Below, one piece after another: positions 33,123 through 62,167 of a DNA stretch of 64,000 nt. A model generated the notes under the pieces. That model worked only from the letters and a program-made list of their open reading frames with translations. It was not told the origin of the DNA and made no database searches. Where the stretch lies: the NCBI GenBank assembly GCA_949285325.1, contig CASDYZ010000007.1:82657-146656 (forward strand), read 5' to 3'. This DNA comes from an uncultured bacterium. GTDB lineage: Bacteria; Bacillota_I; Bacilli_A; RFN20; CAG-826. Position 1 is the stretch's first letter, and each line of letters opens with the position of its first letter. The position numbers and the translations under genes were made by a program.

Positions 33123-33126
33123 AAAT

Positions 33127-40025: not shown

Positions 40026-40070
40026 TGTGGCCCGTGCTATAATACAGTTCAGTTAAGGATAAAAGTATAT

Positions 40071-42146: not shown

Positions 42147-42242
42147 AGCATACGTATATTAATCAAACAATCTTTAAATCTTTTAAATAATAACTTTTTT
42201 CATTTACAATAATTAATAACGAAGAAAGAATAGTTAAATTAG

Positions 42243-45200: not shown

Positions 45201-46685
45201 AAAAATGAAAAACTAGGAGAAGAAATAGATAAGATAACAGTTAAACTTATCACACAAATTAGTTTAGAGGAAAACGGAAAGACCATGATATTCAAAGATA
45301 AATATATCCCAATTTTTAATGGTAAAACATGGTACATAGTAGTGGACGATAGCGATGATGTGAATGATCTTAATATAAGAGAATGCATTGAAAATATTTG
45401 TGGAAAAATTGGAAACACGGAGAATGAGACAATTTTGCGTGAGTTAGGTGAAGTTTATGAAAACAAAAATAATAGATTACAACGTACCGAGAAGTATTTA
45501 GGAGAACCAATATCGATAGAAGACACTGTAATTGAAAACGAGATACGTAAGTCATTTGCAAAAATATTAAATTTAAAATACGAAGATGACGATTTGAAAG
45601 GTATTGATTTTGACAATATTGAATCTTTAGAAGTAGCAGAGTCAATATTTAAACTTTTGAAAAGGCATAATAAAAGCATAAAAGAATTGCGACGAGATAA
45701 TTTTAAGTACATCGATAAAATTAAATTTGAAAACTATTTTCAAAACATGATAAAAAATTTCATCGACACCAATGAAGACAAATACAAGAATTCATTATTT
45801 GTGTCTTATAAAGATAAAGATAGAAAAGACCAAGAACAATTTTTAGATAAGGTTGATGAATTTAAACATTTTTCTCCTGACTTTGACGCAACAAAATTTG
45901 ACATAGATTTTGACGCACAAAAATTAGTTACAAAACATTTTTCAATCATAGGCGATGAGATAGACGCTGAAGCGGACGAAGAATACGAAAACAATTTCAA
46001 AGAATATTTTAGTGATTTATATAATAATGATGAATTTAAAGACTTTCTCATTAGAAACAAAAATTATAAATCTTTAATTTATTTTATTAATGACACCAGT
46101 GGAGATATCGTAGATGAAATTAAAAATAAATATAACGGTCAAAAACAATTAAGTTTAGAGGATATCTACCCTTCAATCAGCGGAGAACAAAATCGCGCTA
46201 TAGATGATTTTATAGTGACAAAGAGTAAGTTTGAACCTAACATCACATCAACAAACAAAGGCGCAAATTCAAAAGAACATGTGAAAACATCTAATGAAAT
46301 TGAAAGAGAAAATCGTAAGAAAAGGAAAAGTGGAAAACAAGCAGAAGAAATAGTATACAATTCTTTAAAGGACCGTATACCTTCTTTAAAATGGACTTCA
46401 GAAAGTTCGTCTTGTGCAAGTCAAAGAGGAAATTCACAAAAATACGATATGGAATATATCAAAGATGGAGAGAAACACTATATAGAAGTCAAGGCGGGCG
46501 TCACATCTTTTTATATGTCTAGAAGTGAATATGATTTTTCACAAGAGAATAAAGATGTCTATGAAATATATTTAGTTGATTCAGACGCTACAAAAATAGA
46601 TGGCCCACACACGATAGGTGAATTTGAAGGCGCGAAAGAAGTTAATGAATATATCTTTAATTTTAAAAAAGTTACTGACAATTAA
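42243..46685 (+). CDS. Giant sacsin/HSP90-like GHKL ATPase with C-terminal DUF3883 (restriction-endonuclease-like) domain
   Basis: Bergerat-fold N-box ILELLQNAVDQA and G2 box IGYKGLGFRSVINWS at the N-terminus. A C-terminal DUF3883-like block (GKQAEEIVYNSLKDRIPSLKWTSE...KYDMEYIKDGEKHYIEVKAG...YEIYLV) closes the 1480 aa protein. Confidence 0.65.
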   Translation: MATINEQVEEYRETEVLKLYKEHKDEIIRDLNREKSTKDDYNGRVILELLQNAVDQAIDGETVKIFISLENNELIIKNTGEPFDFEGVKSVMKSDHSPKAEDQNTIGYKGLGFRSVINWSHDISIYSHDLSIRFSNNFRKQYFEKNGILDETALLVAPQIIENIDQDGYDTIIKIKIDNETKIEEVKSQLNNINKYTLLFLDNVDELSIKIDNRTKRYQRKEKEDEVTIIDDGNENKFNLFKKEEEINDKKHKIVIAYDPAIDCTKNKLYSYFETNISLPIKWKCHVTFDLESNRKHIVESEDNINLFKTLISFILEKAQELAEKQNPRTYEFFDSVLPIIKAEHLSFGINDASLISFFKDEIENAKILPTLPNGLVCLNDRPIFYENIPDFFKDIENEKILCESNDKDRNEILSKMLQYNDFNPMGLKEQINKVSHEYDAKTNVGIYLWWEGKYRNNNNCLPNVLKNSHGEFIEKDTNVYFVHSNEDFDIPTWAKIIQLDKEYEQELKEQTQKFFPHIFKKNKDSVERIIGANSGKYQILSHINFHDSDISNIISPINSSVKNDFKKAKEFVKWLWKHYSNRDGWVPPDEIRFNFPSNNETVCKANELFLGQNYDNPLGDKLFQDNKFEPLLDFKRLNIEQEQKEDFIKFILKFSVNKFPVLQKTTIEDSDFRKQYSEEWIKNKILEIYEKDEPRYIELKKVETNNIEKLETILDNLEDYEIFQWLCFDDKIKQEIELKNKNQITVDYDIRSYTHRNNQIIEDDERSYIKYIISKTKWINIGGVKHAPVECVFINKYDVKLNELLHVIDEEYIKNICNKANITKDTLNKTIKHIGIAERISNLKSNDLYDFLLKLPNYDKRGIISKKLYNEFCEPDNTIDITYSENKQRFFQEGQVYTYNRDGESFHLASDTYFTNSMMINLKNKYIIFTPNRKGSFETFKNVFGVQKFEENVSVVEGSETISQHNKSFQEDFKDFVKYARHWKIKNEKLGEEIDKITVKLITQISLEENGKTMIFKDKYIPIFNGKTWYIVVDDSDDVNDLNIRECIENICGKIGNTENETILRELGEVYENKNNRLQRTEKYLGEPISIEDTVIENEIRKSFAKILNLKYEDDDLKGIDFDNIESLEVAESIFKLLKRHNKSIKELRRDNFKYIDKIKFENYFQNMIKNFIDTNEDKYKNSLFVSYKDKDRKDQEQFLDKVDEFKHFSPDFDATKFDIDFDAQKLVTKHFSIIGDEIDAEADEEYENNFKEYFSDLYNNDEFKDFLIRNKNYKSLIYFINDTSGDIVDEIKNKYNGQKQLSLEDIYPSISGEQNRAIDDFIVTKSKFEPNITSTNKGANSKEHVKTSNEIERENRKKRKSGKQAEEIVYNSLKDRIPSLKWTSESSSCASQRGNSQKYDMEYIKDGEKHYIEVKAGVTSFYMSRSEYDFSQENKDVYEIYLVDSDATKIDGPHTIGEFEGAKEVNEYIFNFKKVTDN

Positions 46686-46831
46686 TTATTAATTCAACAT
46701 CATTTTTATAAAAATCAAAGCAAAACGAGCATATTTAATATATATTTACATTAATATTTGATTAATTTAATTAGTTTTGCTATGTGTGTAAACAATGGAC
46801 TTTAAAATAAAAATATTTGATAATTGTATTT

Positions 46832-49800
46832 ATGAAACATTTCTTGCTTTTGATAGATATAGACCATCTTGCTGTTTCTAATAATTTTAATAAAAGCATG
46901 TTTGATTTTGTTTTTAATCGTGGCGGTTTTCATCTTGCAAATTCTCTTACCGCCAGCAAGAATAAAAAGCTTTTTGGTGAATATAAAAATATAGATGATA
47001 ATTTTAATGAATTTGAACCAGTGATAGAGAGTTGTTATTTTGATTTATGGCAAGGTAGATTTAAGAATCTAATCATATCTTTTTATGATGTGACAAATAG
47101 TCTTAATTATGGTCTAGTTAAATATAACATTAAAACTAAGATGTTTGAGTTATATTATGTGAATAAAGATAGAGATAAGTTTATTGAGAACAATGATGTT
47201 GATGATATTTTAGATAAAGATTTAAGTGATAAGATTATCGATTATGTCTCGTCTTTAGATGTAGAGACACTAGGTGAATTGTCTAGCAATGTTTATGTGT
47301 CAAAAGAAAATAAACTATTGATTATTGATCAATCTAAAATAAGTGAAAACACTAAAACGATACTTAATGTAATGTTATCTAATAAATTAAATACGACAAA
47401 CATCATCAATATTAAAAATGTCGCGGTGGATATTGAAGATTTAAATAATCCACTATACGTATATGTTGAATTTGAATGCAAAGATAAAAAATATGAGTAT
47501 TGGTTTTATGATGAGGAATTAAAAGATATCGATGTATTAGATTATGGTGAAATTAAAGATACTTGGCTAGATATATTTATCAACAAAGCAGAAGAAGAAT
47601 TTATAAGACAAAATAAAAAGATTCTTATAGATGTTTTAAATAAGAAAAACAAAGATGATGCGTTTAATGTGTTATCTAAATTATATAAAAAATTTAAACT
47701 TGTTAAATGTGACGATGGATATGGATATATAGAACTAAATAGCGACCCCTTTATATATTTAGACGACGATAATGTCAAAATCAAAACTAGTAGAAATATC
47801 GATGACGATAGTTATGTTGTGTTTGATTATATAAACATCATAGACAATAAAAATGAAATTAAGAAAGTAATCGATAGATATATATCAAGTAAGCCAAAAG
47901 AATACGATACATTTATAAAGGAAGTAGATGAATTTATAAATAACATATACGACCTAGATACATCAAAACAAATTGCGTTAAAGTTATTAGAAAAAGCTAA
48001 TAATTTATCGCCGTACGATAAAACGACAACGATATATGAAAAAGCATATCAACAACTTAAAAATAAGTATAATCAATTGATCAATGTCAATAAAACTAAA
48101 GTCAGCAATTGTTTAACGTTGTTAAATAAAATAGTGGATATCAATACGTATAACACCTATTGTGATGCATTTAACGATGCAGTGGAAGAGTGTAGTGAAG
48201 GTGAATTAAGCGCTTTTAAAAATGAATACGATGATTTTTTAAATAAGTATGGATATATATCAAATTATCCATCGACACACACTGTATATAGAAGAGTGTT
48301 TATAAGAAAAAGTGTGCTAGAAGATTTAAAAAAACTAGATATTGAAAATAAGGGATTAAAAATATTGTCGGTGATGGATGATATCGTCGATAATTTAAAG
48401 ACACTGCCAGGTAATGAACTTGGTAAATATTTATTAAATAAAGGTTTAAATTTTCCAATTAAAAATGATAGGTCGATTAAAAAGATAAGGATACTTAGAA
48501 ACGCAAAATATAGATTGTTATTTGTCTATGGTTCTGATTTAAATGATGTAGAAAGAAATACTAATTCCAACAGCGTTTATATCTTTGCCCTAACTATGCA
48601 TAAAAAGGACAGCGGTGAACTATATACACTAGCAAAAACAAAACCAAACAAATATAAAATTAATGATTTTATTATCTATCCAAAAAACAAATTGATTAAA
48701 ATACCAGAATGTACATCTAAACAGTATGAGATTGCCTCTAGTTATAAAAATAGACCACTCGTCACTTTTGGGTGTGCGGGAAGTGGGAAAACGACTGTGT
48801 CCATCGAACAATATGTCAATATTGTATATAACAACTTCAACTGCGCTTCACCTAAGGTAGATGAACTTGTCTATATAACATTTCATAAAGGTTTATCAGA
48901 CAAAGTTAAAAAAGATTTACTAGAATTTCACATCGATGGTAATTGTTATAAATTAGATGAATATTTTGCTTATGTAGTGGGGGAAGAATATAACAAAGCA
49001 CAAATCATCGATGAACATGTCTTTGTCAGTTGGTTTAATAAAACATATTCAAAAAGTGAGATTAAAAAGAATAAGTCAAAAAAGAAAAATAAAATAAGCC
49101 CACTTTTAAATAAGCCAGATATTGCAAGATTAATTTATACATATTACCGTGGAGTATTTAAAGGTAGCAAAGAACTTTATAATTCAAAAGACAATTATCT
49201 AGATAAAGATACATTTATGTTGGAGATGAGTGGTGAGACTTATCTAAGTGATGAAGAGAAAAACGCCATATATTTGTTTTGTTTAGAATTTAATGACTAC
49301 GCTTTTAAAAACAATTTATTAAGCGACAATGACTACGCACTTAAAGTTATAAGACAATCGTCATTTGATATTAAAAAAACAAACTGCATCATCATCGATG
49401 AGGTGCAAGATTTAACTGAGATTGAAACAATCGCGACCATTTTAACTCTTAACGATGACAGTGCGAGGATATATTTTTATGGCGATCCTCATCAAAGTAT
49501 TAATCCAAATGTATTTGATAGTTCGACTATCAATAGGGTTTATACCGCTTTAGGTAAATCGACATCGAGTGAAAACGCTCCTCTTACTATCACTTATAGG
49601 ACTAATAAGCATCTAATTAAATATTTAAATCAACTTCTTAAATACCGTGATAAGTGGATAGGGGCCACTAAAGAAGAACTATCGCAGATAGAAGAGCCGC
49701 CTATAATGGATGAAGATACTTCTTGGGCGGGGTACGTCACTAATAAAGAGTTATATAACAAAATATTTATCACTAATCCTAGGAGTATGATTATTACCCC

Positions 49801-50605
49801 AAGTGAAGAGATAAGAGAAAAATTATTAGATAAATATAAACAGATAGATAAAGAACGTGTCATCACTATATACGACGCGAAAGGGATGGAGTGGGACACG
49901 ATTATCATGTACAACATCTTCAGCGATTATAAGACATATTTTTTAGACATGATTTTAGAAAACGGGTGTGCGAAGAAAAGTACAATTCATAGGATGACGT
50001 TTAATAAATATTATGTTGGTTGTACAAGGAGTACGAAAAGCTTTGTCATCGTCGAAGAAGATGAAGACATATTTAAAAAAGATAATCCGATTTTTAAAAC
50101 GTTATTATCTTCTTTTGCCCCTATTTCAAAAAAAGAACAAATCGATACTTATATATTAGAAGATAATACTTTTGATGCGTGGTATAAAGAGGCAGTGCAA
50201 AACTTAAGTAACGACAATACATCGACATTTGAACACGCTTTAAAACATGCGAGAAGTCTAGCTAAAACAAATGAAGAAATTAGGATGGTCAATAGTCTAA
50301 TCGACGGCACACCTGAACATCTTGAAAGAAGCGCATTTAAATATCTTGAAGAAGGTGAATATGATTTATCACTAAGTACATTTATCAAATGTAATAAAAT
50401 AAATAAACGATATGGCCCATATATCATATTATGCGCGCTTCTATGTGGTAGAAATATAACTGATGAACATTTAAAAGAAATATTAAAACATCAAGAATTA
50501 TTTGATAAATATCCTTCTGCCCTACCTAAACTTATGACACAGAAAGTATTTATAAATAAATTGACGACATTATCTAATAGATTATTTAACAAGGAGGAAA
50601 AATGA
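46832..50605 (+). CDS. UvrD/Rep-like superfamily 1 helicase with long N-terminal extension containing a RelE/ParE-like segment
   Basis: Walker A VTFGCAGSGKTTVS, Walker B IIDEVQDLT, motif IV-like TYRTNKHLI and motif VI-like YYVGCTRSTKSFVIV. Upstream of the P-loop, KIRILRNAKYRLLFVYGSD...VYIFALTMHKKD resembles the RelE/ParE toxin fold. Alternative start at 46817. Confidence 0.7.
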   Translation: MKHFLLLIDIDHLAVSNNFNKSMFDFVFNRGGFHLANSLTASKNKKLFGEYKNIDDNFNEFEPVIESCYFDLWQGRFKNLIISFYDVTNSLNYGLVKYNIKTKMFELYYVNKDRDKFIENNDVDDILDKDLSDKIIDYVSSLDVETLGELSSNVYVSKENKLLIIDQSKISENTKTILNVMLSNKLNTTNIINIKNVAVDIEDLNNPLYVYVEFECKDKKYEYWFYDEELKDIDVLDYGEIKDTWLDIFINKAEEEFIRQNKKILIDVLNKKNKDDAFNVLSKLYKKFKLVKCDDGYGYIELNSDPFIYLDDDNVKIKTSRNIDDDSYVVFDYINIIDNKNEIKKVIDRYISSKPKEYDTFIKEVDEFINNIYDLDTSKQIALKLLEKANNLSPYDKTTTIYEKAYQQLKNKYNQLINVNKTKVSNCLTLLNKIVDINTYNTYCDAFNDAVEECSEGELSAFKNEYDDFLNKYGYISNYPSTHTVYRRVFIRKSVLEDLKKLDIENKGLKILSVMDDIVDNLKTLPGNELGKYLLNKGLNFPIKNDRSIKKIRILRNAKYRLLFVYGSDLNDVERNTNSNSVYIFALTMHKKDSGELYTLAKTKPNKYKINDFIIYPKNKLIKIPECTSKQYEIASSYKNRPLVTFGCAGSGKTTVSIEQYVNIVYNNFNCASPKVDELVYITFHKGLSDKVKKDLLEFHIDGNCYKLDEYFAYVVGEEYNKAQIIDEHVFVSWFNKTYSKSEIKKNKSKKKNKISPLLNKPDIARLIYTYYRGVFKGSKELYNSKDNYLDKDTFMLEMSGETYLSDEEKNAIYLFCLEFNDYAFKNNLLSDNDYALKVIRQSSFDIKKTNCIIIDEVQDLTEIETIATILTLNDDSARIYFYGDPHQSINPNVFDSSTINRVYTALGKSTSSENAPLTITYRTNKHLIKYLNQLLKYRDKWIGATKEELSQIEEPPIMDEDTSWAGYVTNKELYNKIFITNPRSMIITPSEEIREKLLDKYKQIDKERVITIYDAKGMEWDTIIMYNIFSDYKTYFLDMILENGCAKKSTIHRMTFNKYYVGCTRSTKSFVIVEEDEDIFKKDNPIFKTLLSSFAPISKKEQIDTYILEDNTFDAWYKEAVQNLSNDNTSTFEHALKHARSLAKTNEEIRMVNSLIDGTPEHLERSAFKYLEEGEYDLSLSTFIKCNKINKRYGPYIILCALLCGRNITDEHLKEILKHQELFDKYPSALPKLMTQKVFINKLTTLSNRLFNKEEK

Positions 50606-51150
50606 TGGAAGAAGAAAATAAACTTACTGTAGAGGAAATGAGATCGCTTATATCTATATCTACTCTCTTACCAGCTTTGCTTGATAAAATTATGTCTATC
50701 CATAAAGATATTGAAGAACTTAAAAAAGAATTTAAAGACATGAAAGACAAATTTAACAACAACACATCCGCGGTTTTGTCATACAAAGATGAAGTTGATG
50801 ACATGATTAAGAAAAACAATATTAAAAGTGAATTAGATGACATCAAACAAAATATTTTAAAGATTGAAAATAGTGTTTTAAATATGACTAAAAGTTCAAC
50901 CAAAAATAAAAGCGATGATAAAACAAAAATAGTCAGTGAAGAAAAAGAAGAAGATGATGATGAAATCAAATCGATGGCGGACAAAATCTTAATGGATCAC
51001 AAAGGCCGTAAATCGAGGCTTTTAACAGTCATCGATATTAAAAAAGCATTTAAGGTAGACGATAAAAAAGCAAGAGAAGTCATACAATATTTTATTGATA
51101 AAAAGATGTATGATGAACAGATGCGCATATTAAAATTCCCTAAAAAATAG
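50602..51150 (+). CDS. Small acidic coiled-coil protein, translationally coupled to the upstream helicase
   Basis: 182 aa, Glu/Asp/Lys-rich with heptad-like periodicity. ATGATGG overlaps the helicase stop. A possible winged-helix-like C-terminus is inference only. Confidence 0.45.
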   Translation: MMEEENKLTVEEMRSLISISTLLPALLDKIMSIHKDIEELKKEFKDMKDKFNNNTSAVLSYKDEVDDMIKKNNIKSELDDIKQNILKIENSVLNMTKSSTKNKSDDKTKIVSEEKEEDDDEIKSMADKILMDHKGRKSRLLTVIDIKKAFKVDDKKAREVIQYFIDKKMYDEQMRILKFPKK

Positions 51151-51171
51151 TAGAAGTGGCACAATATAAAT

Positions 51172-52083
51172 ATGCGTTATTTATTTTTTGACATTGAATG
51201 TGCTGATGGGATGTTTGCCATATGTGAATTTGGTTATGTCATATGCGACGAGAATTTTAAAATAACTCATAAGAGAAATATATTAATTAATCCCAGGAGT
51301 AAATTTAGATTAACAAATAGAAAGAAGTCTAAAGATTTAGCTCTTACTTACCCTATAGAAGAATATATTAAACATAATGAATTTAATGAATTTTATGACA
51401 ACATCAAATTTTTATTGACGCAGAAGAACATAAAGATATTTGGATACGCGGTTAATAACGATATTAGTTTTTTGTTTAGAGACACTCTTCGATACAATTT
51501 AAAATTGTTTGATTTTAGTTGTTACGATGTACAAAAGATGCTTAATATATTTTCAAGCAACAACAACGCATCAACATCTTTAGAAAAAGCATATACAAAT
51601 TTAGTAAAAGATAAAGTAGACATTAAACATCACCACGCGCTTTGCGACGCATATAAGAGTATGCTTATCTTTAAAGCAATGGTGGAGGCACTAGACACGA
51701 GTGTCGAGCAGTTTATCTCGCTTTGCTCGTCTTCATTTATAAACGCTTTATCGAGTTGGAATAAAACGCAAAAGAATGAACAAAATAAAAGGCAGAAGAG
51801 AAAATGGGATAAATTTGTATCAAGTTATAAAAATAAAATCGATAACGATAAAACAATTTATGTCAGTGATTTAATTTATTTAAATGATAAGCAGTTTGAA
51901 GTTATAACAAAATATATTAAAGATAATAATTTAATACCAACTAAATCGATAAGTGCTTGTTACCTCGTGTTCTTAGATGAAAAAGAGAAGAACAAGAGAC
52001 TTATAAAGATAAAAGAATTTATAAAAGGTGAAATATTAATCTATCAAGATATATTAAATAAAATGAAAAGTAACAATAAGTAA
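51172..52083 (+). CDS. DEDDh-family 3'-5' exonuclease (DnaQ-like)
   Basis: Exo I motif FFDIEC, Exo II GYAVNNDISFL and Exo III HHALCDAYKS (the H-x4-D of DEDDh). It starts 21 nt after the upstream gene. Confidence 0.7.
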   Translation: MRYLFFDIECADGMFAICEFGYVICDENFKITHKRNILINPRSKFRLTNRKKSKDLALTYPIEEYIKHNEFNEFYDNIKFLLTQKNIKIFGYAVNNDISFLFRDTLRYNLKLFDFSCYDVQKMLNIFSSNNNASTSLEKAYTNLVKDKVDIKHHHALCDAYKSMLIFKAMVEALDTSVEQFISLCSSSFINALSSWNKTQKNEQNKRQKRKWDKFVSSYKNKIDNDKTIYVSDLIYLNDKQFEVITKYIKDNNLIPTKSISACYLVFLDEKEKNKRLIKIKEFIKGEILIYQDILNKMKSNNK

Positions 52084-52134: not shown

Positions 52135-52839
52135 ATGGAATTTAAAGACAAACTTAAAAAATTAAGAACAGAAAATGGTTTGACACAAGAAGCGTTAGCA
52201 GAAGCGATACACGTCTCTAGAAGTGCGATAGCAAAATATGAAAATGGTAATGGTTATCCATCTAAAGAGACGCTAGAGTCTCTTGCTTATTATTTTGGTG
52301 TTGATATAAGTGAATTAGAAAGCGACGAGATAATTGTCAAAAGAAAGAAAAAGAAAAACATCATTAAAATCATATTAATTGTATTCTCAAGTATCATTGG
52401 GGCAATCGGTCTAGGTTTAGCGGGATTCGCCATTTATTTTGAACTCAACAAACTACCAACTGGCGGGATGGTAGAATTTAATGCCTCAAAAATAGGTTTA
52501 AATGCCTGTAAAGAAATGAGAGAAATTACTTTACATGGACATACATTTACTTACTACAACGTTAAATCTAACGAAAAAGGTGAATGGATCTTGGTGGATG
52601 AGACATCGCATATAATTAACACTGACATCATCTTTGGCTTTAGACTAAAAAGTGGTGATAAAGTATCAATCAATGGATATTATAACGACGAAGCAGAAAT
52701 TTATAATAATGTATCTAAAGCGTATCCTGGATACACTGATTATTCGATAAGAGATTATGGATTTATCATTGAAGTAAAAGATGACACTGAGGTGCCACCT
52801 GAAGGGATAAATTTAGGAATAATGATGCATTGGTGTTAA
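52135..52839 (+). CDS. Membrane-anchored XRE-family HTH transcriptional regulator
   Basis: N-terminal Cro/C1 HTH (LRTENGLTQEALAEAIHVSRSAIAKYENG), a single TM helix (IIKIILIVFSSIIGAIGLGLAGFAIYF) and a roughly 130-aa C-terminal extracytoplasmic domain. Confidence 0.7.
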   Translation: MEFKDKLKKLRTENGLTQEALAEAIHVSRSAIAKYENGNGYPSKETLESLAYYFGVDISELESDEIIVKRKKKKNIIKIILIVFSSIIGAIGLGLAGFAIYFELNKLPTGGMVEFNASKIGLNACKEMREITLHGHTFTYYNVKSNEKGEWILVDETSHIINTDIIFGFRLKSGDKVSINGYYNDEAEIYNNVSKAYPGYTDYSIRDYGFIIEVKDDTEVPPEGINLGIMMHWC

Positions 52840-52872: not shown

Positions 52873-53703
52873 TTACAATATTATTTTAACGATAGTAATG
52901 TCGTCGATAACTTTAAAACGATTATATTTATTAAAATCTATATCAGAGTATGCTTTTTCTTTTATTTCGTTAAATAATATATCTAAATCATCTTTGCTAT
53001 TTATTTTTGATATTGTTTCATCCATAGATTTATAAATGTTAAAAGTGGACCATATATCTTCAAACCCATCAGTTAATAAACTTATGGATGATATATCTTT
53101 TTTCTCTATAGATTCGTGAGAAAAATTAAACACCCCATCACGTGAACAAGTATATATCGCATACCCTTCTTTTTTATTTGCTTTAAGCCGATGTTTGATC
53201 AATATATCGTTATTATTTTGTCTAGCTTTTTTAAAACTGACATTATTTTTTAAGGCGTATTCTTTCATGACATTTAACGATATATCGTCTAATTTAACTA
53301 GTTCTTGTTGTTGATAATTTTTAAATTGGTGCTCTTTATTTTCTATTACGATTTGACTATCACCAATATAATCTAAATTTATTCTATTATCATCAATATT
53401 GACGACGACCATCCCGACACTAGGTAAGATAGACATATCAGCGTTATTTAAAAAATATTGTTCATAATATTTGATACTTATTTTTTTAAGTGCATCTTTT
53501 AAATGTATATATTTTTTAGGTAGATGTCTTTTTATGTAATTGACGAAATGGGCGCCGGTGGAGGGGAGAAGAGAAGAAGGGACAAGTCCAGTCGCCCCAT
53601 CCATAACTAAAACATAATCATCACCGATGAAGAAACGATCTTCATTGTAATAATGTGATTTACGTGTTTTATAAATTAATGTTAAGTCTTTTTTAATATT
53701 CAT
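52873..53703 (-). CDS. PP2C-family serine/threonine protein phosphatase
   Basis: PP2C metal-binding motifs YNEDRF (motif 1), VMDGATG (motif 2), IGDSQIVI (motif 8) and LLTDGFED (motif 11). Its ATG abuts the TAA of the upstream gene (TAAATG). Confidence 0.6.
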   Translation of the reverse strand: MNIKKDLTLIYKTRKSHYYNEDRFFIGDDYVLVMDGATGLVPSSLLPSTGAHFVNYIKRHLPKKYIHLKDALKKISIKYYEQYFLNNADMSILPSVGMVVVNIDDNRINLDYIGDSQIVIENKEHQFKNYQQQELVKLDDISLNVMKEYALKNNVSFKKARQNNNDILIKHRLKANKKEGYAIYTCSRDGVFNFSHESIEKKDISSISLLTDGFEDIWSTFNIYKSMDETISKINSKDDLDILFNEIKEKAYSDIDFNKYNRFKVIDDITIVKIIL

Positions 53704-54939
53704 TTAGATAATACCTGCAGTGATTAAAGAGGCGGTTAGGATAAGAGCCCCTATACATAGGATAATTATAGAATATATTTTTTGTTTTTTCTTTAAATCG
53801 TCTAACACTAGGCTAACACCAACTAAACATATACCCAATAAAATTAGTATCAAACCGAGGTAGGCACATATATATAGTACGATTCTAATTGGTTCATCGA
53901 CTCTAGCGAATATTTCAATGCTACCTAATAAGAAACCTAACAACGCTGTCATGATAGATATGACTTTAAAATTGTCAGTCTTAATAGATTTAAGTGTCTC
54001 ATAATTGCTATTTGATGTATCAAACGCTTGTATTAATGATATGTTATTTGCGATTAATTTATATGAGTCGATTGTTGATTTATTAGGAGAAGATGATTCA
54101 TATACTTTTTGTATCCCTTTATTTATGCTTTCTAGTGCGAGTGCGTATTCGTGTGAGAGGGCGAGTAGTCTTCCTCTAGTGACATAGTATTTGTCATATA
54201 CTTTTAAATTGTATTTAACTGCCTCATTTATTTTGTCATTGAATATTTTTTGCTCTTCATCATATTCTTTATCTTTTAACAATTTAATATTGTCTATCGA
54301 GTTATTTTTCTCCGCCTCTTTAATCAAATCGTTAATTTTATTTAAAGCGTCTTTAATTTGCTTTTGTCCGACATTATCTTCTTTCTCATCTTTTAAATCG
54401 AGATGTCTTTCATAATATATGGCAATCATCTCACAGTAGTGATGGATGATGCCAGGTTGAGTTGAAAGAGATGGGTGTTCTTTTCTCATCCTTTCTGACT
54501 GTTTTATCAATCTATCGTATTTATCGTAAAATTTAGGTGAATTAGCTTTATTTAATAAATCGATATGTTTTTTAATTGGATAGTTGTTAAATTCAAAACC
54601 AAATTGTTCAACTTCTTGTAGATAAAATGTTTCCATCTCAGAAAAATTGTTTTGTCTTCGATAATAAGTAAAGACAATCCAAAAATAAGTAAAGATAATA
54701 TCTAATTGTTCACCTTGTCTTTGTTTAGGATTCTTAATATAAGCATCCTTTTCACTTTGATAAATATTTTTTATTTGATTTATAAGGTTATTAGATGCAA
54801 TTAATTTACTTAATTCTGTCACTTGACATTCATACTGACGGCTACTAAAAAAATCTTTATCGTCATCATTATTAGTCGTCTCTTTTTTAAGTTCACATAT
54901 ACTTTTAATGTACTGTTTAATATTAACTAAATACTTCAT
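53704..54939 (-). CDS. Hypothetical alpha-helical protein with two C-terminal transmembrane helices, co-operonic with the PP2C phosphatase
   Basis: 411 aa with a soluble helical N-domain and two long hydrophobic helices near the C-terminus. Its stop is directly fused to the PP2C start. Confidence 0.45.
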   Translation of the reverse strand: MKYLVNIKQYIKSICELKKETTNNDDDKDFFSSRQYECQVTELSKLIASNNLINQIKNIYQSEKDAYIKNPKQRQGEQLDIIFTYFWIVFTYYRRQNNFSEMETFYLQEVEQFGFEFNNYPIKKHIDLLNKANSPKFYDKYDRLIKQSERMRKEHPSLSTQPGIIHHYCEMIAIYYERHLDLKDEKEDNVGQKQIKDALNKINDLIKEAEKNNSIDNIKLLKDKEYDEEQKIFNDKINEAVKYNLKVYDKYYVTRGRLLALSHEYALALESINKGIQKVYESSSPNKSTIDSYKLIANNISLIQAFDTSNSNYETLKSIKTDNFKVISIMTALLGFLLGSIEIFARVDEPIRIVLYICAYLGLILILLGICLVGVSLVLDDLKKKQKIYSIIILCIGALILTASLITAGII

Positions 54940-54959
54940 ATTTTTTATCCTTTCTTAAA

Positions 54960-56987
54960 TCAAAAACTAATTCTAATCGAAGGGCGAACACCAGTGTCGG
55001 ATAAAGTAGGAGAAGTAGCCCTAAACATCCCGTTATCGATAATAGCCATTACGGATGAGGAGTTATAGTTATATGGTGTCCTTGTCCAATAATCTGACCT
55101 TTCGTTATCTAATACATAACCGCCAATGGCTTTAAAATAGTCACTCACAATTCCTGCCCTTGCTTCGTCGATGGTGTTTTCTTTTTTAAATTCAAAACTT
55201 GTCAAATCTTTATAGCTGAGCGGATAGACATAGTCATCTGTATCCTCACAAATATAAGGGTGATCTTCATCCATCGTTGAAGCACTAGAATTATCGACAG
55301 TAGTTAATAATATTCTATCTCTTTCTTCCTCACTAAAAGCTTTATTTAAAAACTCATCATTTAAAAATGTTCTTAAAGTTGAAGAAGCGTAATTATTACT
55401 CAAGGTGGCACTAAACTCATGGGCATCTAAAATGTATTTACTAAAAAGTAGAAACCCTTCATTATCTTCATCTAATATATCCCACTCGATTGGCTTGACA
55501 TTAAAATAATACGTTTCACCAGCACTGACTATTGTCCCATCGCTAAACACATAATCCACACCAGCGGGATTTGCTTCTACTTTTACATATTCATTATTGT
55601 TATATGAATAGTAACCATTTTCGTTTGGTGTAACATTATTTAAAACAACTTTCAACTGTTCATTTACGCTGTGGCCAACATAACTTTGAGGATATTTACC
55701 AAATGTCAATTCTTCTTGTTTCTCGTATGGGAATAAAGTCGTCCCGATATTACTAACTTTAGTATCTATAACCGCCGGATGATAACTACCGCCTTCATCT
55801 TTTTTAATTGCCTCGTAATGGATACTTATATCTTGGATGACATTATTTTCATCGACATTTAAAGTGACATACGCTTGTGATATATCAAGAATTTGATAAT
55901 TAAATCCAATGAACGGTAAGGCGGGATCAAAATATCTTAAATAGTACATGTATCCATTTGCAAAATCAAAGCCACCGAGGATGTCATATACATTATTTCC
56001 TAGTGGTCTAAATAGATATGGTGTCATACTGACTTTAGTTAAATAGTCTTTGACAGTCGCACTTATCGCATTTTCACCTTTTCTAATATAAAGATTATTT
56101 TCCACATCGATATCGACTGGATATAATCCGTATTCATATTGGGCAAATACTTTGGTGTTATCTCCCTTTTTAATAAGTAGTCCATCGTTAGACGCTTCGA
56201 CGTGTGTCTTATCTTTGACGTCATTGACACTTATATCGATGTTGAGAGTGTAATTACCCCCGTTTAAAATAGTTAACATCTGATTAATTTTATTTAAATC
56301 ATCTTGAGGATAAGTATTAGGATTTAAACAACTTGCGATACCTGGCATGTTAATGTCACTTATATTGACACTTACAAAAGTCGCGTCGACATTATAAGAG
56401 GCATCGTTTTGGTCTATCGTCCCAATAAATTTAAATTGTTTGACACTTCTATCGTCATTTAATGTAACTTCTATTTTATTAGTGCTACCAAAATCCATAT
56501 GTATCAATGTATAGATTAATTGGTTTTTATCTTCTAAGGTATAAGTGAATTTGTCGTGTGAATCAATTTCAACATCATCAGCATTTATGTTATTAAAAGG
56601 TGAGACTACATATTCGTCAAAAGGGATATAGTTAACTGTGTCTTGACTTAGGTAGGCGACATCATCAATACGACCTTCATTATTTAATAGATACGACATC
56701 GATTCACCATTTAATCCTTCAAATATATTCTCATACTGCATCGATATATCATTGACTTCTATTTTAGTGTAGTATCTTCTTACTCCCACCTCATAACTAG
56801 CGTACGTCGTCGTTTTAATTGTCTTATTTTTGTAGTAGCCGCCATCGATTTTAATCGTGCCTTTTATAGATATTTCACTTTGTAGTTGTTTAAGTGCGTT
56901 ATCGAGAGTGTCTCTATCCATTTCGCTAGGTGAACAACTAACAATAGATAAACATAAGAACGGAATAATTAAATTTTTAAATTTCAT
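54960..56987 (-). CDS. Hypothetical surface lipoprotein with DUF6273-like C-terminal domain
   Basis: Signal peptide plus lipobox (LSIVSCSP). The C-terminal motif SDYWTRTP...GVRPSIRI resembles the YWWLRSP/VRPA pattern of a Firmicute surface-protein domain. It lies 20 nt upstream of the next minus-strand gene. Confidence 0.5.
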   Translation of the reverse strand: MKFKNLIIPFLCLSIVSCSPSEMDRDTLDNALKQLQSEISIKGTIKIDGGYYKNKTIKTTTYASYEVGVRRYYTKIEVNDISMQYENIFEGLNGESMSYLLNNEGRIDDVAYLSQDTVNYIPFDEYVVSPFNNINADDVEIDSHDKFTYTLEDKNQLIYTLIHMDFGSTNKIEVTLNDDRSVKQFKFIGTIDQNDASYNVDATFVSVNISDINMPGIASCLNPNTYPQDDLNKINQMLTILNGGNYTLNIDISVNDVKDKTHVEASNDGLLIKKGDNTKVFAQYEYGLYPVDIDVENNLYIRKGENAISATVKDYLTKVSMTPYLFRPLGNNVYDILGGFDFANGYMYYLRYFDPALPFIGFNYQILDISQAYVTLNVDENNVIQDISIHYEAIKKDEGGSYHPAVIDTKVSNIGTTLFPYEKQEELTFGKYPQSYVGHSVNEQLKVVLNNVTPNENGYYSYNNNEYVKVEANPAGVDYVFSDGTIVSAGETYYFNVKPIEWDILDEDNEGFLLFSKYILDAHEFSATLSNNYASSTLRTFLNDEFLNKAFSEEERDRILLTTVDNSSASTMDEDHPYICEDTDDYVYPLSYKDLTSFEFKKENTIDEARAGIVSDYFKAIGGYVLDNERSDYWTRTPYNYNSSSVMAIIDNGMFRATSPTLSDTGVRPSIRISF

Positions 56988-57301
56988 ATTATTTTTTCTT
57001 CTTTATTAACATTATATCACGATTGATTTTAATAATTATTGAAGATTATTAATTAATTTTAATCAATATGTTCAATTAAATTGCTTTATGTTAAAAATAA
57101 GTGCGAAATTGAATATATTATCGATGTATTTTTAAATATTTTTATTGAAATAAAATTGTTAAAGAAAATGGATATGAGAGTTGATAGAGGACTATATCTA
57201 GCTAGGAAAGAAAAAGGCTTAAACATTTTAACGACACTCAACATTACTTCCGATTTATTATTTAAAGTATTTCAAAATAAAAATAAAGGAGAAAATAATC
57301 G

Positions 57302-58919
57302 ATGAAACACTTTAAAACATTATTTTTGTTTTTACCATTATTGGGTTTAGTAAGTACCTCACTCTATGGGTGTGGAAAACAAGGTGAAGATAGCTCTTCT
57401 TCAATTACAACTAGTCAAACTAGTGAAGAAACTTCTTCTTCGTCTATTGAACTAGAAATTTCACTTCAAATACTCGATGGCGATATTATCGGGTTGGATG
57501 TCGGTGATACTTATCAACTCAATGTGTCGGTAGTCAATAGTGAGTTTACCCCTACCTTTTACCTCATCAAATGAAGATGTCACTTCTATTAATGAAGATG
57601 GCTTGATAAGTGCGATTAGTGAAGGAAGTACCATAATAAGTGCATCTATTGGAGATGTGATTGATTCAATTGAAGTAGTGGTTAATCCTATTCAACAAGA
57701 AGGCAGTGTACAAACTTATTTATATGTATTAAATCAAAGCGATTTTACTGGTTCAGGATATGATACAAGCGCGGGGAGTGCATATATAGATGGTTTAACT
57801 TGGGACTATGAAGCCTTCCCGTTTTTAGGGCAGAGTGCGGATGGCGTACAAATTGGTTCAAATAAACAACCACCTAGAGATGGTTGGACCATATCGACTA
57901 CTTTCCCTGGCGAGATAATTATGCTCAATTATGAAATTACTTTAAAGACAAATTCCCCTGCCTCTTATAAAGTGAGTATGGGAGAATATGTCAGCGAAGA
58001 AGAAATCCCGGGGAATAGCGTCACGACAGTATATGGTGAAGAAGGATTAGATATAAAGACCACTGATTCCTCTTTAACATTAACCAACCAAACCAAAGCA
58101 GTATACCTATATTCTATTTACTTAGAACTATTCGTCCCTGAAGGAGTAGATTTATCTTTGACTATTAAAGAAGATGAATTAACTCCTATCCAGCCTGGCG
58201 AAGGGGATGTGCCCAATGTCAATTATGAATTAATTGATAAAGAACAATATTATTCTTCTATAGATTTTAATAGTGACGCGTCAACACTAAAGGAAGAACT
58301 ATCCACACTTATATCGAACATGACTAGAATTAGTTATGGCGATGATACATATATCATGATTTACACTGATGAAAGTGTAGAAAAGCTTGGTACGTTATAT
58401 GGTATATATGGCGGTGATGAAATAGCCGCTGAGGCGGACGGCACATGGAATAAAGAGCACGTTTGGGTGTGTTCGCAGATGAAGAAAGATGGGGTTGATC
58501 CACGCCCTAGCAGTGACGATAAAAACCACGCGACAGACTTGCACAATCTTCGTGTCGCTTGTCAAAATAGCAATGGCCAACATGGCAATAAATTTTATGA
58601 CAACACCAATGGGGATATAACCTTTTTCCCTAACATTGAAGATGATGGCTCAGCAGTTCATGAATATAAAGGTGACCACCGAGGCGATCTAGCAAGAATT
58701 TTATTTTACATGGCTATTCGTTATGATTTCTTATCTTTAACAGATGATATTGAAAATGCAAACGATACATCAATGGGTCGATTATCTGTCTTATTAGAAT
58801 GGCACAAACTTGATCCAGCCGATGAATTTGAAACGCAAAGAAACAACCGTATTTATGAATTCCAAGGTAATCGTAATCCATTTATTGATTATCCTGGATT
58901 AGTTGATGTTTTATATTAG
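57302..58919 (+). pseudogene. Frameshifted lipoprotein extracellular nuclease (Endonuclease I family plus Big_2 domain), third paralog
   Basis: ORFs 57302-57574 and 57540-58919 are two frames of one gene. Signal plus lipobox (LYGCG), a Big_2 domain split at GAGTTTA (about 57546-57552; one T fewer would restore SELPLPFTSSNEDV). C-terminal Endonuclease I motifs NKEHVWVCS...DLHNLRVACQNSNGQHGNKFYD...LARILFYMAIRY. Confidence 0.7.
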
Positions 58920-59068: not shown

Positions 59069-62000
59069 ATGGAACTATCAGTTAAAAATGCGCTTTACGA
59101 GTCGATAATGAACAATAAATGGCTCGACATCATCTATGTCAATAAAGCAAGTGAGACGACTTATTACTATATTGGTATAAAAGATATCGATGTAGAAAAA
59201 GATTTGATTTTATGCGACATCTTTAACGCATATAAAAAAGATAAAAAAGATTTAAATAATGTCAGTATTAAAATAAGTGGGATTAAAAAAGCAAAGATAC
59301 TCGACGCATCTTTTTACGACACACCTCTTACGTTAGTCAATAAGATTAATAATGATAAAAATATTATTAATTATTTAGATGTCATCAACTACGATAACAA
59401 CATCCTAAGATATTTATCCGACTGCTATAAAGCTGACAGTGATCCTTATTTAAAACATTCAGTGACAATCGATGGGGTGGATAACCACACATTGATAGAA
59501 AAAAGTAAATACAAATTAGATGAAAAGCAATTTGAAGATATATTAAATAAAGTTTTTAAAAAGCCTTTATATGACGCGGAAGTGATGAATAGATATCAAC
59601 AACTCGCCATTAATAAATTTTCTATCGACATAAACGATAAGCAGTATGTCGTCGCGTATAAAGAACTTTTTATCAATTTTAAAGACAAGACTTTAAGAGT
59701 GTCTAAAAAGACATTTTTCAATAAATCTTTTTTAGTCGATGAAGATAAAAAGATGACATTGAGTATGTATATAGATATGAATCAAGATGAGTTTTGTGCC
59801 TCGTATGATGAACATGAAAGAGAATATATCGAATTGATTCAATCGAATTTCAAAAGAGGGGAAAAAGTAAATACCCGCCCATCGATATTCTTCTTAGAAA
59901 GAAATGTCACCTATGGTGTCGATATGGCGTGTGAATCTATATACGCTTTAGATAGTGAAAATAAATTGACTCTTCCCTTAAAAGCGTTCTTCGGGAGAAA
60001 TAGACCATCGAAAGGTTCATCTAAAGAAGTTAACATCGTCGTCTTTGATAAGACAAAAATAAATATTGATCAAATTAGAGTGATATACTCCGCGATGCTC
60101 AACCACGTAACATATGTCAAAGGTCCACCTGGCACTGGTAAGACAGAAACTATTTTTAATGTCATATTATCCGCCTATTCAAACAATAAAACTGTTTTAA
60201 TTTGTTCTAATAACAATCATCCAGTTAATGACATCTATAGCAAGATGCAAAAATTTATGGTTAAAACTAACTATAGAACTAAAAAAGAAGAAGATATATT
60301 GTTCCCTATAATTAGATTAGGCAACAACCTCGAAGTTGTTGAATCTATGAATACGATTAGATCGGTTGTAGATTTTATAAGTAGCAAAAATCTTAAGTCT
60401 TTAAAAGATGAAATAACTGAAACATCTAAAAGACGTTCGATGGATGGATTTAATAAATTAAAACAACTTTTAATTGAATATGAAGAAAGAGTGGACAATG
60501 AAGATAAATTGTCGACATTATTAAAAATTAAAAACATCACCAAAATTGACGCTTTAAATCAAAAATTAGATGAGCAGATAAAGGTATATGAAAATAAAAT
60601 AAAAAATGGTAGAGAAATAAGTGATGAAGATGTATTAGAATACGCTTTAAGTGCGAGCAAGGATACAAATTTTCAAAACTTTATCTACTATTCTTCTCTT
60701 GCAAGGTATAAGAAATTACTTAGCCCGTCATATAAAGATTTAATTGAAATATTAAATATTGAAGACACCATTGAGGCACTTAATCAATTTAATAAATATT
60801 TAAAAAACAACGACAATCTCAAAAAGTTTTTATCGGTCTTCCCTTTTGTCGTGTCGACAAATATATCTTGTGATAAATTAGGCAGTCCTTCTCCACATTT
60901 TGATTTAGTCATCATGGATGAAGCTGGGCAGTGCAATATCGCTTCTAGTTTAATACCTATCGTGAGAGGTAACGACCTACTTTTAGTGGGCGATACAAAT
61001 CAACTTCAACCAGTGACAGTAATAGAAGAGAGCACAAATGAGAGGCTGATGGATAAATACGGAGTTAAATCTGAATATGACTATATTAGAAATTCTATAT
61101 TATCGAGTATGATGAGAGTGGATAACAATTCTAAAAATATTCTTTTGAGATACCATTATCGATGTGGGAGAAAAATAGCAAATTTTTCTAACAAAAGATA
61201 TTACAATTCCCAGCTTAAACTCCTAAATAAACACGAAGGCAAATTGACGTACGTAAATGTTAAAAATATCTATAACAAAAATAGTAGAAATGCATACGAG
61301 CAAGAAGCTAGAGCAATTGTAGAGATAATTAAAAATAACAATTATAAAGATGTAGGTGTCATCACTCCTTTTGTCAATCAAGCAGCGTTAATAAATGAAT
61401 ATTTAATAAAAGAAGGTATAACCGATGTAAAAGCCGGGACTATTCACACCTTACAAGGTTCAGAAAAAAACACCATTATCATGAGTAGTGCCTTAAGTTT
61501 AAGAACTAGCAAGAACACTTTAAAGTGGATTGAAAACAATTATGAATTGATCAATGTCGCGGTGACTAGGGCAAAAGAACAATTTATTTTTGTCGGAGAT
61601 AAACAAGCGATAGACCTATTAAGTGGTAACAACAAAAGCGACATAAAAGTTTTGTCGGATTACGTGTATGCGAAAGGGGAGATATTCGTCCCAGAAAGCG
61701 AATTAAAAATAGTTAATGATTTTTCTAACAATTCAAAAAATGAAAAAGAATTCTTCGACACGATTGGACCATATTTTAATAGGAGAGGCACTAAATTTAA
61801 AATCGATGCGAATGTGCCACTTAATCAAGCATTAAATGCATTAAGTGCGCAGGACAAGGATATTTTTGGTAAAAAAGAATTCGATATTGTCGTGTCAGTC
61901 GGTGAAGGATTGATAAGAAAAAAATACCGCACTCTCGTGGTATTTGAAATTGATGGAGGAGAGCATATCGGTTTAAAAAGGCAATCGCGACTCGATAGAG

Positions 62001-62167
62001 AAAAAGAAATGATTTGTCAAAAATATGGTATAAAACTTATCCGTATACCTAATTCAGCAGTTAAAGACTATGAGATGATTATATCTTTATTTGAATATGT
62101 TGTAAGCGGACTACCTAGCATCGATAAAGCCTATTCTCGATTGTCGTTATTTGAAGATAATGATTAA
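59069..62167 (+). CDS. Upf1/DNA2-like superfamily 1 helicase with C-terminal Vsr/DUF559-like endonuclease-fold domain (Hhe/Nhi-like single-protein defence candidate)
   Basis: Walker A GPPGTGKTETIFNV, Walker B VIMDEAGQ, motifs V/VI GTIHTLQGSEKNTIIMS and NVAVTRAKEQFIFVGD. The C-terminal about 120 aa (FDIVVSVGEGLIRKKYRTLVVFEIDGGEHIG...REKEMICQKYGIKLIRIP) matches the DUF559/Vsr-like REase fold. Confidence 0.7.
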   Translation: MELSVKNALYESIMNNKWLDIIYVNKASETTYYYIGIKDIDVEKDLILCDIFNAYKKDKKDLNNVSIKISGIKKAKILDASFYDTPLTLVNKINNDKNIINYLDVINYDNNILRYLSDCYKADSDPYLKHSVTIDGVDNHTLIEKSKYKLDEKQFEDILNKVFKKPLYDAEVMNRYQQLAINKFSIDINDKQYVVAYKELFINFKDKTLRVSKKTFFNKSFLVDEDKKMTLSMYIDMNQDEFCASYDEHEREYIELIQSNFKRGEKVNTRPSIFFLERNVTYGVDMACESIYALDSENKLTLPLKAFFGRNRPSKGSSKEVNIVVFDKTKINIDQIRVIYSAMLNHVTYVKGPPGTGKTETIFNVILSAYSNNKTVLICSNNNHPVNDIYSKMQKFMVKTNYRTKKEEDILFPIIRLGNNLEVVESMNTIRSVVDFISSKNLKSLKDEITETSKRRSMDGFNKLKQLLIEYEERVDNEDKLSTLLKIKNITKIDALNQKLDEQIKVYENKIKNGREISDEDVLEYALSASKDTNFQNFIYYSSLARYKKLLSPSYKDLIEILNIEDTIEALNQFNKYLKNNDNLKKFLSVFPFVVSTNISCDKLGSPSPHFDLVIMDEAGQCNIASSLIPIVRGNDLLLVGDTNQLQPVTVIEESTNERLMDKYGVKSEYDYIRNSILSSMMRVDNNSKNILLRYHYRCGRKIANFSNKRYYNSQLKLLNKHEGKLTYVNVKNIYNKNSRNAYEQEARAIVEIIKNNNYKDVGVITPFVNQAALINEYLIKEGITDVKAGTIHTLQGSEKNTIIMSSALSLRTSKNTLKWIENNYELINVAVTRAKEQFIFVGDKQAIDLLSGNNKSDIKVLSDYVYAKGEIFVPESELKIVNDFSNNSKNEKEFFDTIGPYFNRRGTKFKIDANVPLNQALNALSAQDKDIFGKKEFDIVVSVGEGLIRKKYRTLVVFEIDGGEHIGLKRQSRLDREKEMICQKYGIKLIRIPNSAVKDYEMIISLFEYVVSGLPSIDKAYSRLSLFEDND

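Follow-up and report, generated by a model that had tools for sequence, protein, structure and literature searches.

Three closely spaced minus-strand genes at positions 52873-56987 of a 64-kb stretch of contig CASDYZ010000007.1 from an uncultured bacterium (this whole stretch of 64,000 nucleotides is hereafter called the window) raised the question of what a PP2C-type phosphatase encoded there without a cognate kinase nearby acts with, and for what. An initial annotation had grouped the phosphatase with a surface lipoprotein and a two-helix membrane protein into a possible signaling or abortive-infection module of a defense island. The answer favored here, with modest confidence, is a smaller one: a two-gene cassette composed of a membrane-tethered PP2C phosphatase and a translationally coupled adaptor, with the lipoprotein gene as an incidental neighbor. 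PP2Cs are usually read through neighboring kinase or partner-switching genes; the subfamily described here had neither, but displayed a near-obligatory membrane partner. The three genes and their junctions, all on the minus strand, were arranged as follows:

52873..53703, minus strand: PP2C-fold (PPM) phosphatase gene, open reading frame (ORF) of 276 amino acids (aa), cytoplasmic, no transmembrane (TM) segment
53701..53706, minus strand: TAAATG stop-start junction of partner gene and phosphatase gene, 0-nt spacer, read in the sequence
53704..54939, minus strand: partner protein gene, ORF of 411 aa, all-helical domain plus three C-terminal TM helices
54940..54959, minus strand: 20-nt spacer from the lipoprotein TGA to the partner ATG, read in the sequence
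54960..56987, minus strand: lipoprotein gene, ORF of 675 aa, lipobox IVSC, C-terminal DUF6273 (Pfam)

The coordinates of the three ORFs and the 20- and 0-nt spacers given in the initial annotation proved exact when the junctions were reread. ORFs of such length in DNA of 30% GC, each with homologs elsewhere, were not due to chance.

The PP2C-fold phosphatase

All four metal-binding motifs already noticed in the 276-aa protein (ED, DGxxG, GDS, and DG) were located, as NEDR at residues 20-23, DGATG at 35-39, GDS at 114-116, and TDGF at 211-214, and a fifth PP2C motif that had been missed, IDDIT, was found at 266-270. The protein contained the full ligand set that defines PPM enzymes, namely the acidic residues of motifs I (ED), II (DGxGG), VIII (DG), and XI (D[ND]), with GD(S) for the third metal. 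In a 44-sequence alignment of the family reaching down to approximately 22% identity, E21, D22, D35, G36, G114, D115, D212, G213, D267, and D268 were invariant or at least 90% conserved. The same alignment disclosed family-specific conserved positions P94, D139, R172, N176, G180, Y181, D254, P261, R262, and K264, which were captured in part by two family-specific motifs: HRxxxNxxxGY at 171-181 and KY(P/N)RFK at 259-264 (family forms NRxLxNxxxGY and KYPRFKxxDD).

The AlphaFold2 (AF2) model of the 276-aa protein (predicted local distance difference test score [pLDDT] 85.9; predicted TM-score 0.86) displayed the alpha-beta-beta-alpha sandwich of PP2C enzymes, and its top Foldseek matches were all PP2C with probability 1.0. 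The protein had been called short; the solved bacterial PP2Cs that it matched were 227-257 residues long, and its extra length relative to minimal bacterial enzymes was a three-helix insert of approximately 55 residues (aa ~133-190), in which several of the family-specific conserved residues were situated.

Sequence profiles gave a split picture. The 276-aa protein scored 15.6 bits (E 0.012) against PF13672 (PP2C_2), below the gathering cutoff of 24, and it had no match at standard thresholds in NCBIfam, PADLOC, or PDB sequence searches; phmmer and a small-family profile against PDB sequences returned noise only. A 44-member profile, when searched against the PDB, placed its NED, DGxxG, GD, and DG positions on the catalytic motifs of a cyanobacterial PP2C, tPphA. 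A word-indexed homolog search returned seven clusters, six of which weakly matched PP2C_2, and a tiny family of this size was rejected as a sensitivity artifact of that search: an exhaustive HMMER profile search gave 2,036 representative clusters (at 50% identity) at E <= 1e-3, of which 198 reached E <= 1e-30; the clusters consisted almost entirely of stand-alone proteins of 260-290 aa. Four distant relatives found by the family profile at E <= 1e-34 exceeded the PF13672 cutoff (P0060, 37 bits; P0090, 36; P0159, 28; P0165, 26), and the Pfam shortfall of the 276-aa protein was offset because these profile-linked relatives pass. Profile validation of the PP2C motifs thus failed for the window protein alone and succeeded for its family; taken with its relatives, the predicted assignment of the gene product as a PP2C-fold enzyme was considered secure.

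The 276-aa protein was 13-17% identical to phosphatases of Stp/PstP/PppA type (S. aureus/S. agalactiae Stp1, M. tuberculosis PstP, P. aeruginosa PppA, and T. elongatus tPphA), and it was set apart from them by several features: (i) it fell under the Pfam cutoff when scored alone; (ii) it carried the enlarged helical insert and the family-specific motifs; (iii) its family was never located beside a Hanks kinase gene in the contexts examined, whereas stp, pstP, and pppA lie beside their kinase genes; and (iv) in most genomes a membrane protein was the obligate partner of its family.

The membrane partner and its conservation

Direct scans of the 411-aa protein yielded no Pfam, NCBIfam, or PADLOC match, and the word-indexed search with it returned six clusters. 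Hydropathy marked three hydrophobic segments at residues 323-347, 349-384, and 386-411, which coincided with the C-terminal helices 312-346, 350-378, and 384-410 of an all-helical AF2 model (pLDDT 79.9). Residues 1 to ~310 were modeled as a helical-repeat domain, followed by a conserved juxtamembrane IKTDNFK at 319-325. The three C-terminal TM segments were kept in all 24 homologs examined, with tails of no more than 14 residues. A membrane protein had been expected from the initial annotation, and this stood; its count of two TM helices had to be raised to three.

The loop between TM1 and TM2 was approximately 5 residues long (VDEPI) and the C-terminal tail 1-4 residues, while the K-rich TM2-TM3 loop (DDLKKKQ) lay on the same side as the N-domain. 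Because of the position of this K-rich loop, the positive-inside rule predicts a cytoplasmic N-domain, with almost nothing exposed outside the cell. Since the outside loops comprise only ~5 and 1-4 residues, the predicted topology marks the 411-aa protein as an anchor and not as an extracytoplasmic sensor, and its earlier description as sensor-like was abandoned.

The nature of the N-domain was less sharply defined. The best Foldseek matches of the 411-aa model were the tetratricopeptide repeat (TPR) proteins NprR (E 0.014), LapB (E 0.09-0.13), LGN, and OGT, all with low TM-scores, and the best match of its profile in the PDB was the TPR protein TTC0263 (E 0.046); these matches weakly suggest a TPR-like domain. 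The predicted architecture of the 411-aa protein recalls that of LapB (YciM), in which a TPR-type solenoid, tied to the membrane by a TM helix, recruits an enzyme from the cytoplasmic side; in the 411-aa protein, the TPR-like character and the recruiting role would be putative. LapB differs in its N-terminal TM helix and its rubredoxin domain, and its similarity to the 411-aa protein was not significant, which makes the likeness one of analogy and not of membership.

Genomic contexts of the pair were gathered by exact-protein look-ups, a scan of GTDB species-representative genomes (24 loci), and profile searches of their ORFs. All 24 genome-scan loci came from metagenome-assembled genomes of uncultured gut bacteria, labeled Bacilli, Mollicutes, Clostridia, Erysipelotrichaceae, Ca. 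Coproplasma, Ca. Pelethenecus, or Clostridium sp. CAG:288. The non-redundant contexts were distributed as follows:

25/34 contexts: homolog of the 411-aa type immediately upstream of the PP2C-like gene, same strand
5/34 contexts: unrelated ~600-aa membrane protein beside the PP2C-like gene
3/34 contexts: no adjacent partner (L035, L041, and L043)
1/34 contexts: locus truncated, uninformative

The coupling of a membrane protein to the phosphatase noticed in the window was therefore found again in the majority of the contexts compared. In a comparison of 31 non-redundant loci, 24 had the 411-aa type directly upstream on the same strand. For the 24 pairs in which it was measured, the spacing of partner gene and phosphatase gene ranged from -40 to +19 nt, and the partner was kept even in L037 and L044, in which the phosphatase was only 25-27% identical to that of the window. 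The pairwise distances of the two proteins correlated strongly (Mantel r 0.91; 0/2000 permutations reached this value), denoting stable co-inheritance and not, by itself, proof of contact.

The five contexts with an unrelated partner contained members of a second family, located as follows:

L018:2182-4002: ~600-aa family replacing the 411-aa partner
L020:336-2144: the same family
L029:2084-3796, minus strand: the same family
L030:2124-3857, minus strand: the same family
L023:1268-2989, minus strand: the same family

These alternative partners were mutually homologous, had ~570-606 aa with one or two N-terminal TM helices, matched no Pfam family, and showed no relationship to the 411-aa family (hhalign probability 4.5%). 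Invariant motifs of their domain were P.G.G..D..D (PSGSGSxD), RE..EE, and GGKP. Their soluble domain (X) was found fused to a PP2C-like domain in both orders: (i) PP2C-TM-X in P0153 and (ii) TM-X-PP2C in P0130 and P0159 (hmmsearch E 9e-29, 1e-23, and 5e-19 for P0153, P0130, and P0159, respectively). Such fusions provide Rosetta-stone evidence that phosphatases of this family may act physically joined to a membrane-anchored protein; no fusion of the 411-aa type to a PP2C-like domain was found among 179 proteins searched. The exchange of partners suggests that membrane association is constant and the identity of the partner exchangeable.

No kinase accompanied the pair. The Hanks-kinase motif [HY]RD[LIVMF]KxxN was present in no ORF of the window or of 39 scanned loci, no kinase family was found among the recurrent neighbors, and no Pkinase domain was listed in the annotated context tables. 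A frequent Ser/Thr kinase neighbor, which would have made the enzyme an ordinary Stp-like housekeeping phosphatase, was accordingly not encountered in the window or those 39 loci. No gene for a STAS protein, an anti-sigma kinase, or a sigma factor was found in the annotated contexts or the recurrent neighbor clusters, a result that covers the flanks only. The lack of a visible kinase, STAS, or anti-sigma partner reported for the window thus held in the other contexts as well.

The latter result bears on the proposal that the enzyme provides the phosphatase input to a partner-switching or sigma-factor pathway of RsbU/RsbP/SpoIIE type, with its STAS substrate encoded elsewhere and the membrane partner as activator. 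One close phosphatase relative did match the SpoIIE Pfam model weakly (E 0.008), and a separate activator of a PP2C enzyme is the logic of RsbT-RsbU and RsbQ-RsbP, in which, as here, the dedicated partner is encoded adjacent. RsbT and RsbQ differ from the 411-aa protein in being soluble, kinase-like or alpha/beta hydrolase proteins encoded in operons with STAS and anti-sigma genes, no gene of which kind recurred in the flanks of the pair, and the window enzyme was structurally closer to Stp/PstP-type enzymes than to SpoIIE/RsbX types. The partner-switching proposal was on balance judged quite improbable.

Proposed mechanism and rival substrates

A membrane-tethered phosphatase with a coupled adaptor would operate as follows. 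A single mRNA, in which the stop codon of the first gene abuts or overlaps the start codon of the second, would serve for both proteins and allow translational coupling. The 411-aa adaptor would be anchored by its three C-terminal TM helices, with the TPR-like domain of ~310 residues facing the cytoplasm, and the phosphatase would bind this scaffold in a probable complex. The adaptor may keep the phosphatase at the inner membrane face and/or regulate it there, and present the substrate to it. The 276-aa enzyme, a soluble metal-dependent PP2C/PPM-fold phosphatase that appears catalytically competent by residues and fold, would most likely act on one or more phospho-Ser/Thr proteins, which are assumed to be phosphorylated by a kinase encoded elsewhere. 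In this proposal, the fold of the phosphatase, its intact set of metal ligands, the architecture and topology of the partner, the conserved adjacency, and the co-divergence are what was shown; a physical complex, tethering as the role of the partner, and a phospho-Ser/Thr protein substrate are inferences.

The proposed layout has single-chain counterparts. In SpoIIE and PstP, TM helices and a helical regulatory region position a PP2C domain on the cytoplasmic side of the membrane, and the pair would represent a split, two-polypeptide version of that layout. The fusion proteins P0130, P0153, and P0159 share the single-chain layout with a different partner domain.

Several results weigh against a tethered protein phosphatase: (i) phosphatase sequence searches against the PDB were marginal (E 0.02), the window protein lay under the Pfam cutoff, and its catalysis is predicted from residues and fold only; (ii) the TPR assignment of the 411-aa partner was weak, with nothing at E <= 1e-3; (iii) the correlation of distances could arise from shared vertical descent alone; (iv) the distant members L035, L041, and L043 lacked an adjacent membrane partner, indicating that the phosphatase can exist alone; (v) a kinase gene or an identifiable substrate gene was located beside the pair in 0/34 contexts, because of which a phosphoprotein substrate is only an assumption; and (vi) one family member pointed to nucleotide chemistry and not to protein dephosphorylation. 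This member, P0118 (470 aa), was a PP2C-like protein fused to a C-terminal Ham1/RdgB NTP pyrophosphatase domain (Ham1p_like, Pfam E 2e-52); the fusion was a single metagenomic sequence and may be a gene-calling artifact. A second unusual protein, P0037 (646 aa), began with an unrelated DUF4906-like region, followed by only the last two-thirds of the PP2C-like domain (profile positions 94-267); it is probably the product of chimeric assembly or of truncation of a fusion.

The fifth and sixth of these points are shared by a different reading, in which the PP2C-fold enzyme removes a nucleotide-derived or phosphodiester-linked group from a protein, or processes, at the membrane, a small molecule that is phosphorylated or a nucleotide; the membrane partner would supply or position the substrate. 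SidD (a deAMPylase) and Lem3 (a dephosphocholinase) are PP2C-fold enzymes that act on proteins in the first of these ways. Consistent with such chemistry were the absence of a kinase gene from 34/34 contexts, the P0118 fusion, the extra conserved residues D139, R172, N176, G180, Y181, D254, P261, R262, and K264 in or after the insert, and the motifs of the alternative fused partner, which resembled Nudix by eye. The Nudix likeness, considered as an identity for the ~600-aa partner, was set aside as no more than a lead: searches of Pfam at E <= 10 and of the PDB by profile both came back empty. The single, possibly artifactual P0118 sequence likewise argues against this chemistry, and orphan PP2Cs without adjacent kinase genes are common in bacteria. 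A substrate of this kind was accordingly regarded as possible but unlikely. A broader version, in which the subfamily is the catalytic half of an unrecognized membrane-associated hydrolase system with exchangeable partners and not a kinase-opposing phosphatase, was considered a somewhat longer shot still; its candidate targets would be a modification derived from a nucleotide or a phosphorylated metabolite close to the membrane, at which the Ham1 fusion and the family-specific Arg/Lys/Tyr residues hint.

The tethered phosphatase with its adaptor, the reading preferred here, had not been described as a pair in the literature searched or in Pfam, NCBIfam, PADLOC, or PDB, and a 2025 paper classifying PF13672 did not mention it (PMC12088040). 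PP2Cs as such, and membrane-anchored PP2Cs, are well known; what appears new is a subfamily with a dedicated, separately encoded, TPR-like partner with three TM helices, a partner for which Pfam, NCBIfam, and the PDB contained no relative. The PP2C-like subfamily is a large one, concentrated in uncultured small-genome gut Bacilli/Clostridia, in which signaling is poorly understood, and recognition of the pair as a unit offers a concrete handle for a substrate search. It also guards against two annotation errors: a defense label taken from the setting of one genome and dismissal of the enzyme for failing a Pfam cutoff.

Lipoprotein, flanking genes, and the defense question

The first gene of the cluster encoded a lipoprotein, as had been stated: the N-terminus MKFKNLIIPFLCLSIVSC of the 675-aa protein displayed a signal peptide that ended in a lipobox, in which residues 15-18 (I-V-S-C) satisfied, by motif reading, the pattern [LVI][ASTVI][GAS]C, and a DUF6273 domain was located at the C-terminus (Pfam E 9e-21). 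The 20-nt spacer behind it contained an AAGGA Shine-Dalgarno sequence (54952-54948), 8 nt ahead of the ATG of the 411-aa gene, and a hairpin scan found no terminator-like hairpin in this spacer. Two candidate regulatory elements flanked the cluster:

57011..57019, minus strand: extended -10-like element TGATATAAT, ~24 nt upstream of the lipoprotein ATG, read in the sequence
52779..52800, minus strand: terminator-like hairpin plus T-run, ~73 nt past the phosphatase stop, in the 3' end of a convergent helix-turn-helix (HTH) gene

The element TGATATAAT was a weak candidate for a promoter of all three genes, in this genome only; a generic sigma-70 promoter scan gave 34 sites versus 36 expected from shuffles and was uninformative in such AT-rich DNA. 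Terminator-like sites numbered 4 in the region versus 1.8 +/- 1.4 expected, and a terminator role of the hairpin at 52779..52800 was only suggestive.

The lipoprotein gene probably shared a transcript with the pair in this genome. tblastn detected the lipoprotein in none of the other 43 loci compared, and no lipoprotein family recurred among the neighbors; because it was missing from every other locus, the lipoprotein is an incidental neighbor outside the conserved module. The three-gene operon originally described therefore survived as a probable co-transcription unit here, with a conserved unit of two genes only.

The flanks of the cluster in the window contained the following genes of defense-like character:

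39312-40025, plus strand: NERD plus Zn-ribbon protein
40071-42146, plus strand: SLFN-like (SLFN-group-3-like) helicase
42243-46685, plus strand: NOV_C protein, 1480 aa
46817-50605, plus strand: UvrD/GajB-like protein, 1262 aa
51172-52083, plus strand: DEDDh exonuclease
59069-62167, plus strand: MkoA/MkoC-like SF1 helicase, 1032 aa, C-terminal DUF2726 (PADLOC MkoC E 7e-56)

A 182-aa coiled-coil protein was also encoded within the run 39312-52083 (plus strand). None of the defense-like genes of the window was assigned to a complete known system. The flanks described as a defense island were indeed rich in nucleases and helicases here, and such a setting was not repeated in other genomes, in which the pair was found (i) between lysS/GNAT and ribF/truB, (ii) beside ATP synthase and glyA, (iii) after glutamine synthetase, and (iv) after nusA-infB-rbfA, all by annotated context. 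The lipoprotein, the 411-aa protein, and the 276-aa protein matched 0 PADLOC-DB v2 families at E <= 0.01, and tblastn searches of 50,697 phage and 72,556 plasmid records yielded no match.

These data bear directly on the three-gene signaling or abortive-infection module, in which the lipoprotein and the membrane protein would sense infection and the PP2C enzyme would serve as effector or switch. Its attractions are the position of the genes between nuclease- and helicase-rich runs and their common orientation with 20- and 0-nt spacers. Against it stand the lack of the lipoprotein at all other loci, the housekeeping surroundings of the pair elsewhere, the empty PADLOC, phage, and plasmid searches, and a membrane protein that exposes almost nothing outside the cell. 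The defense reading rests on one neighborhood because the pair elsewhere lies amid housekeeping genes and has no PADLOC, phage, or plasmid relatives; already largely refuted by distribution, such a module was judged very improbable, and the cassette is not a defense system.

Recurrent neighbors of the pair other than the partner were limited to generic XRE-HTH genes (6 loci) and a type III glutamine synthetase gene (4 related loci). XRE-HTH genes were located less than 3 kb from the pair in 6/31 loci (the window, L005, L008, L014, L015, and L032). That of the window (52135-52839, plus strand, 234 aa) converged on the phosphatase gene and came within 33 nt of the phosphatase stop; the HTH protein had a single TM helix (aa ~73-105) and weakly matched Sigma_reg_N; the L008 counterpart (235 aa) likewise contained a TM helix. 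A conserved XRE-HTH neighbor was nevertheless set aside as a weak lead, the similarity being confined to the generic HTH domain in those 6/31 loci. Synteny with a nusA-infB-rbfA/truB-ribF-rpsO cluster (L037 and L001) was also tried as a candidate and rejected, with no recurrence in other loci.

Upstream of the cluster, the region 57302-58919 (plus strand) contained a 90-aa ORF with a lipoprotein signal (MKHFKTLFLFLPLLGLVSTSLYGC) that overlapped, in another frame, the start of a 459-aa Big-like plus Endonuclease_1 ORF, and Ig-like domain sequence spanned the frame change near 57540-57574; this arrangement gives the impression of a single gene for a lipoprotein nuclease that was broken by a frameshift, whether by sequencing error, pseudogene formation, or slippage. 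Adjacent TldD/PmbA metallopeptidase genes (439 and 466 aa) were located at 31803-34527 (minus strand). Three large Endonuclease_1 (extracellular nuclease) genes with Ig-like or lamin-tail domains were present within the 64 kb, at 26853-29183 (minus strand), 29185-31785 (minus strand), and 57540-58919 (plus strand), which fits a small-genome organism scavenging nucleotides.

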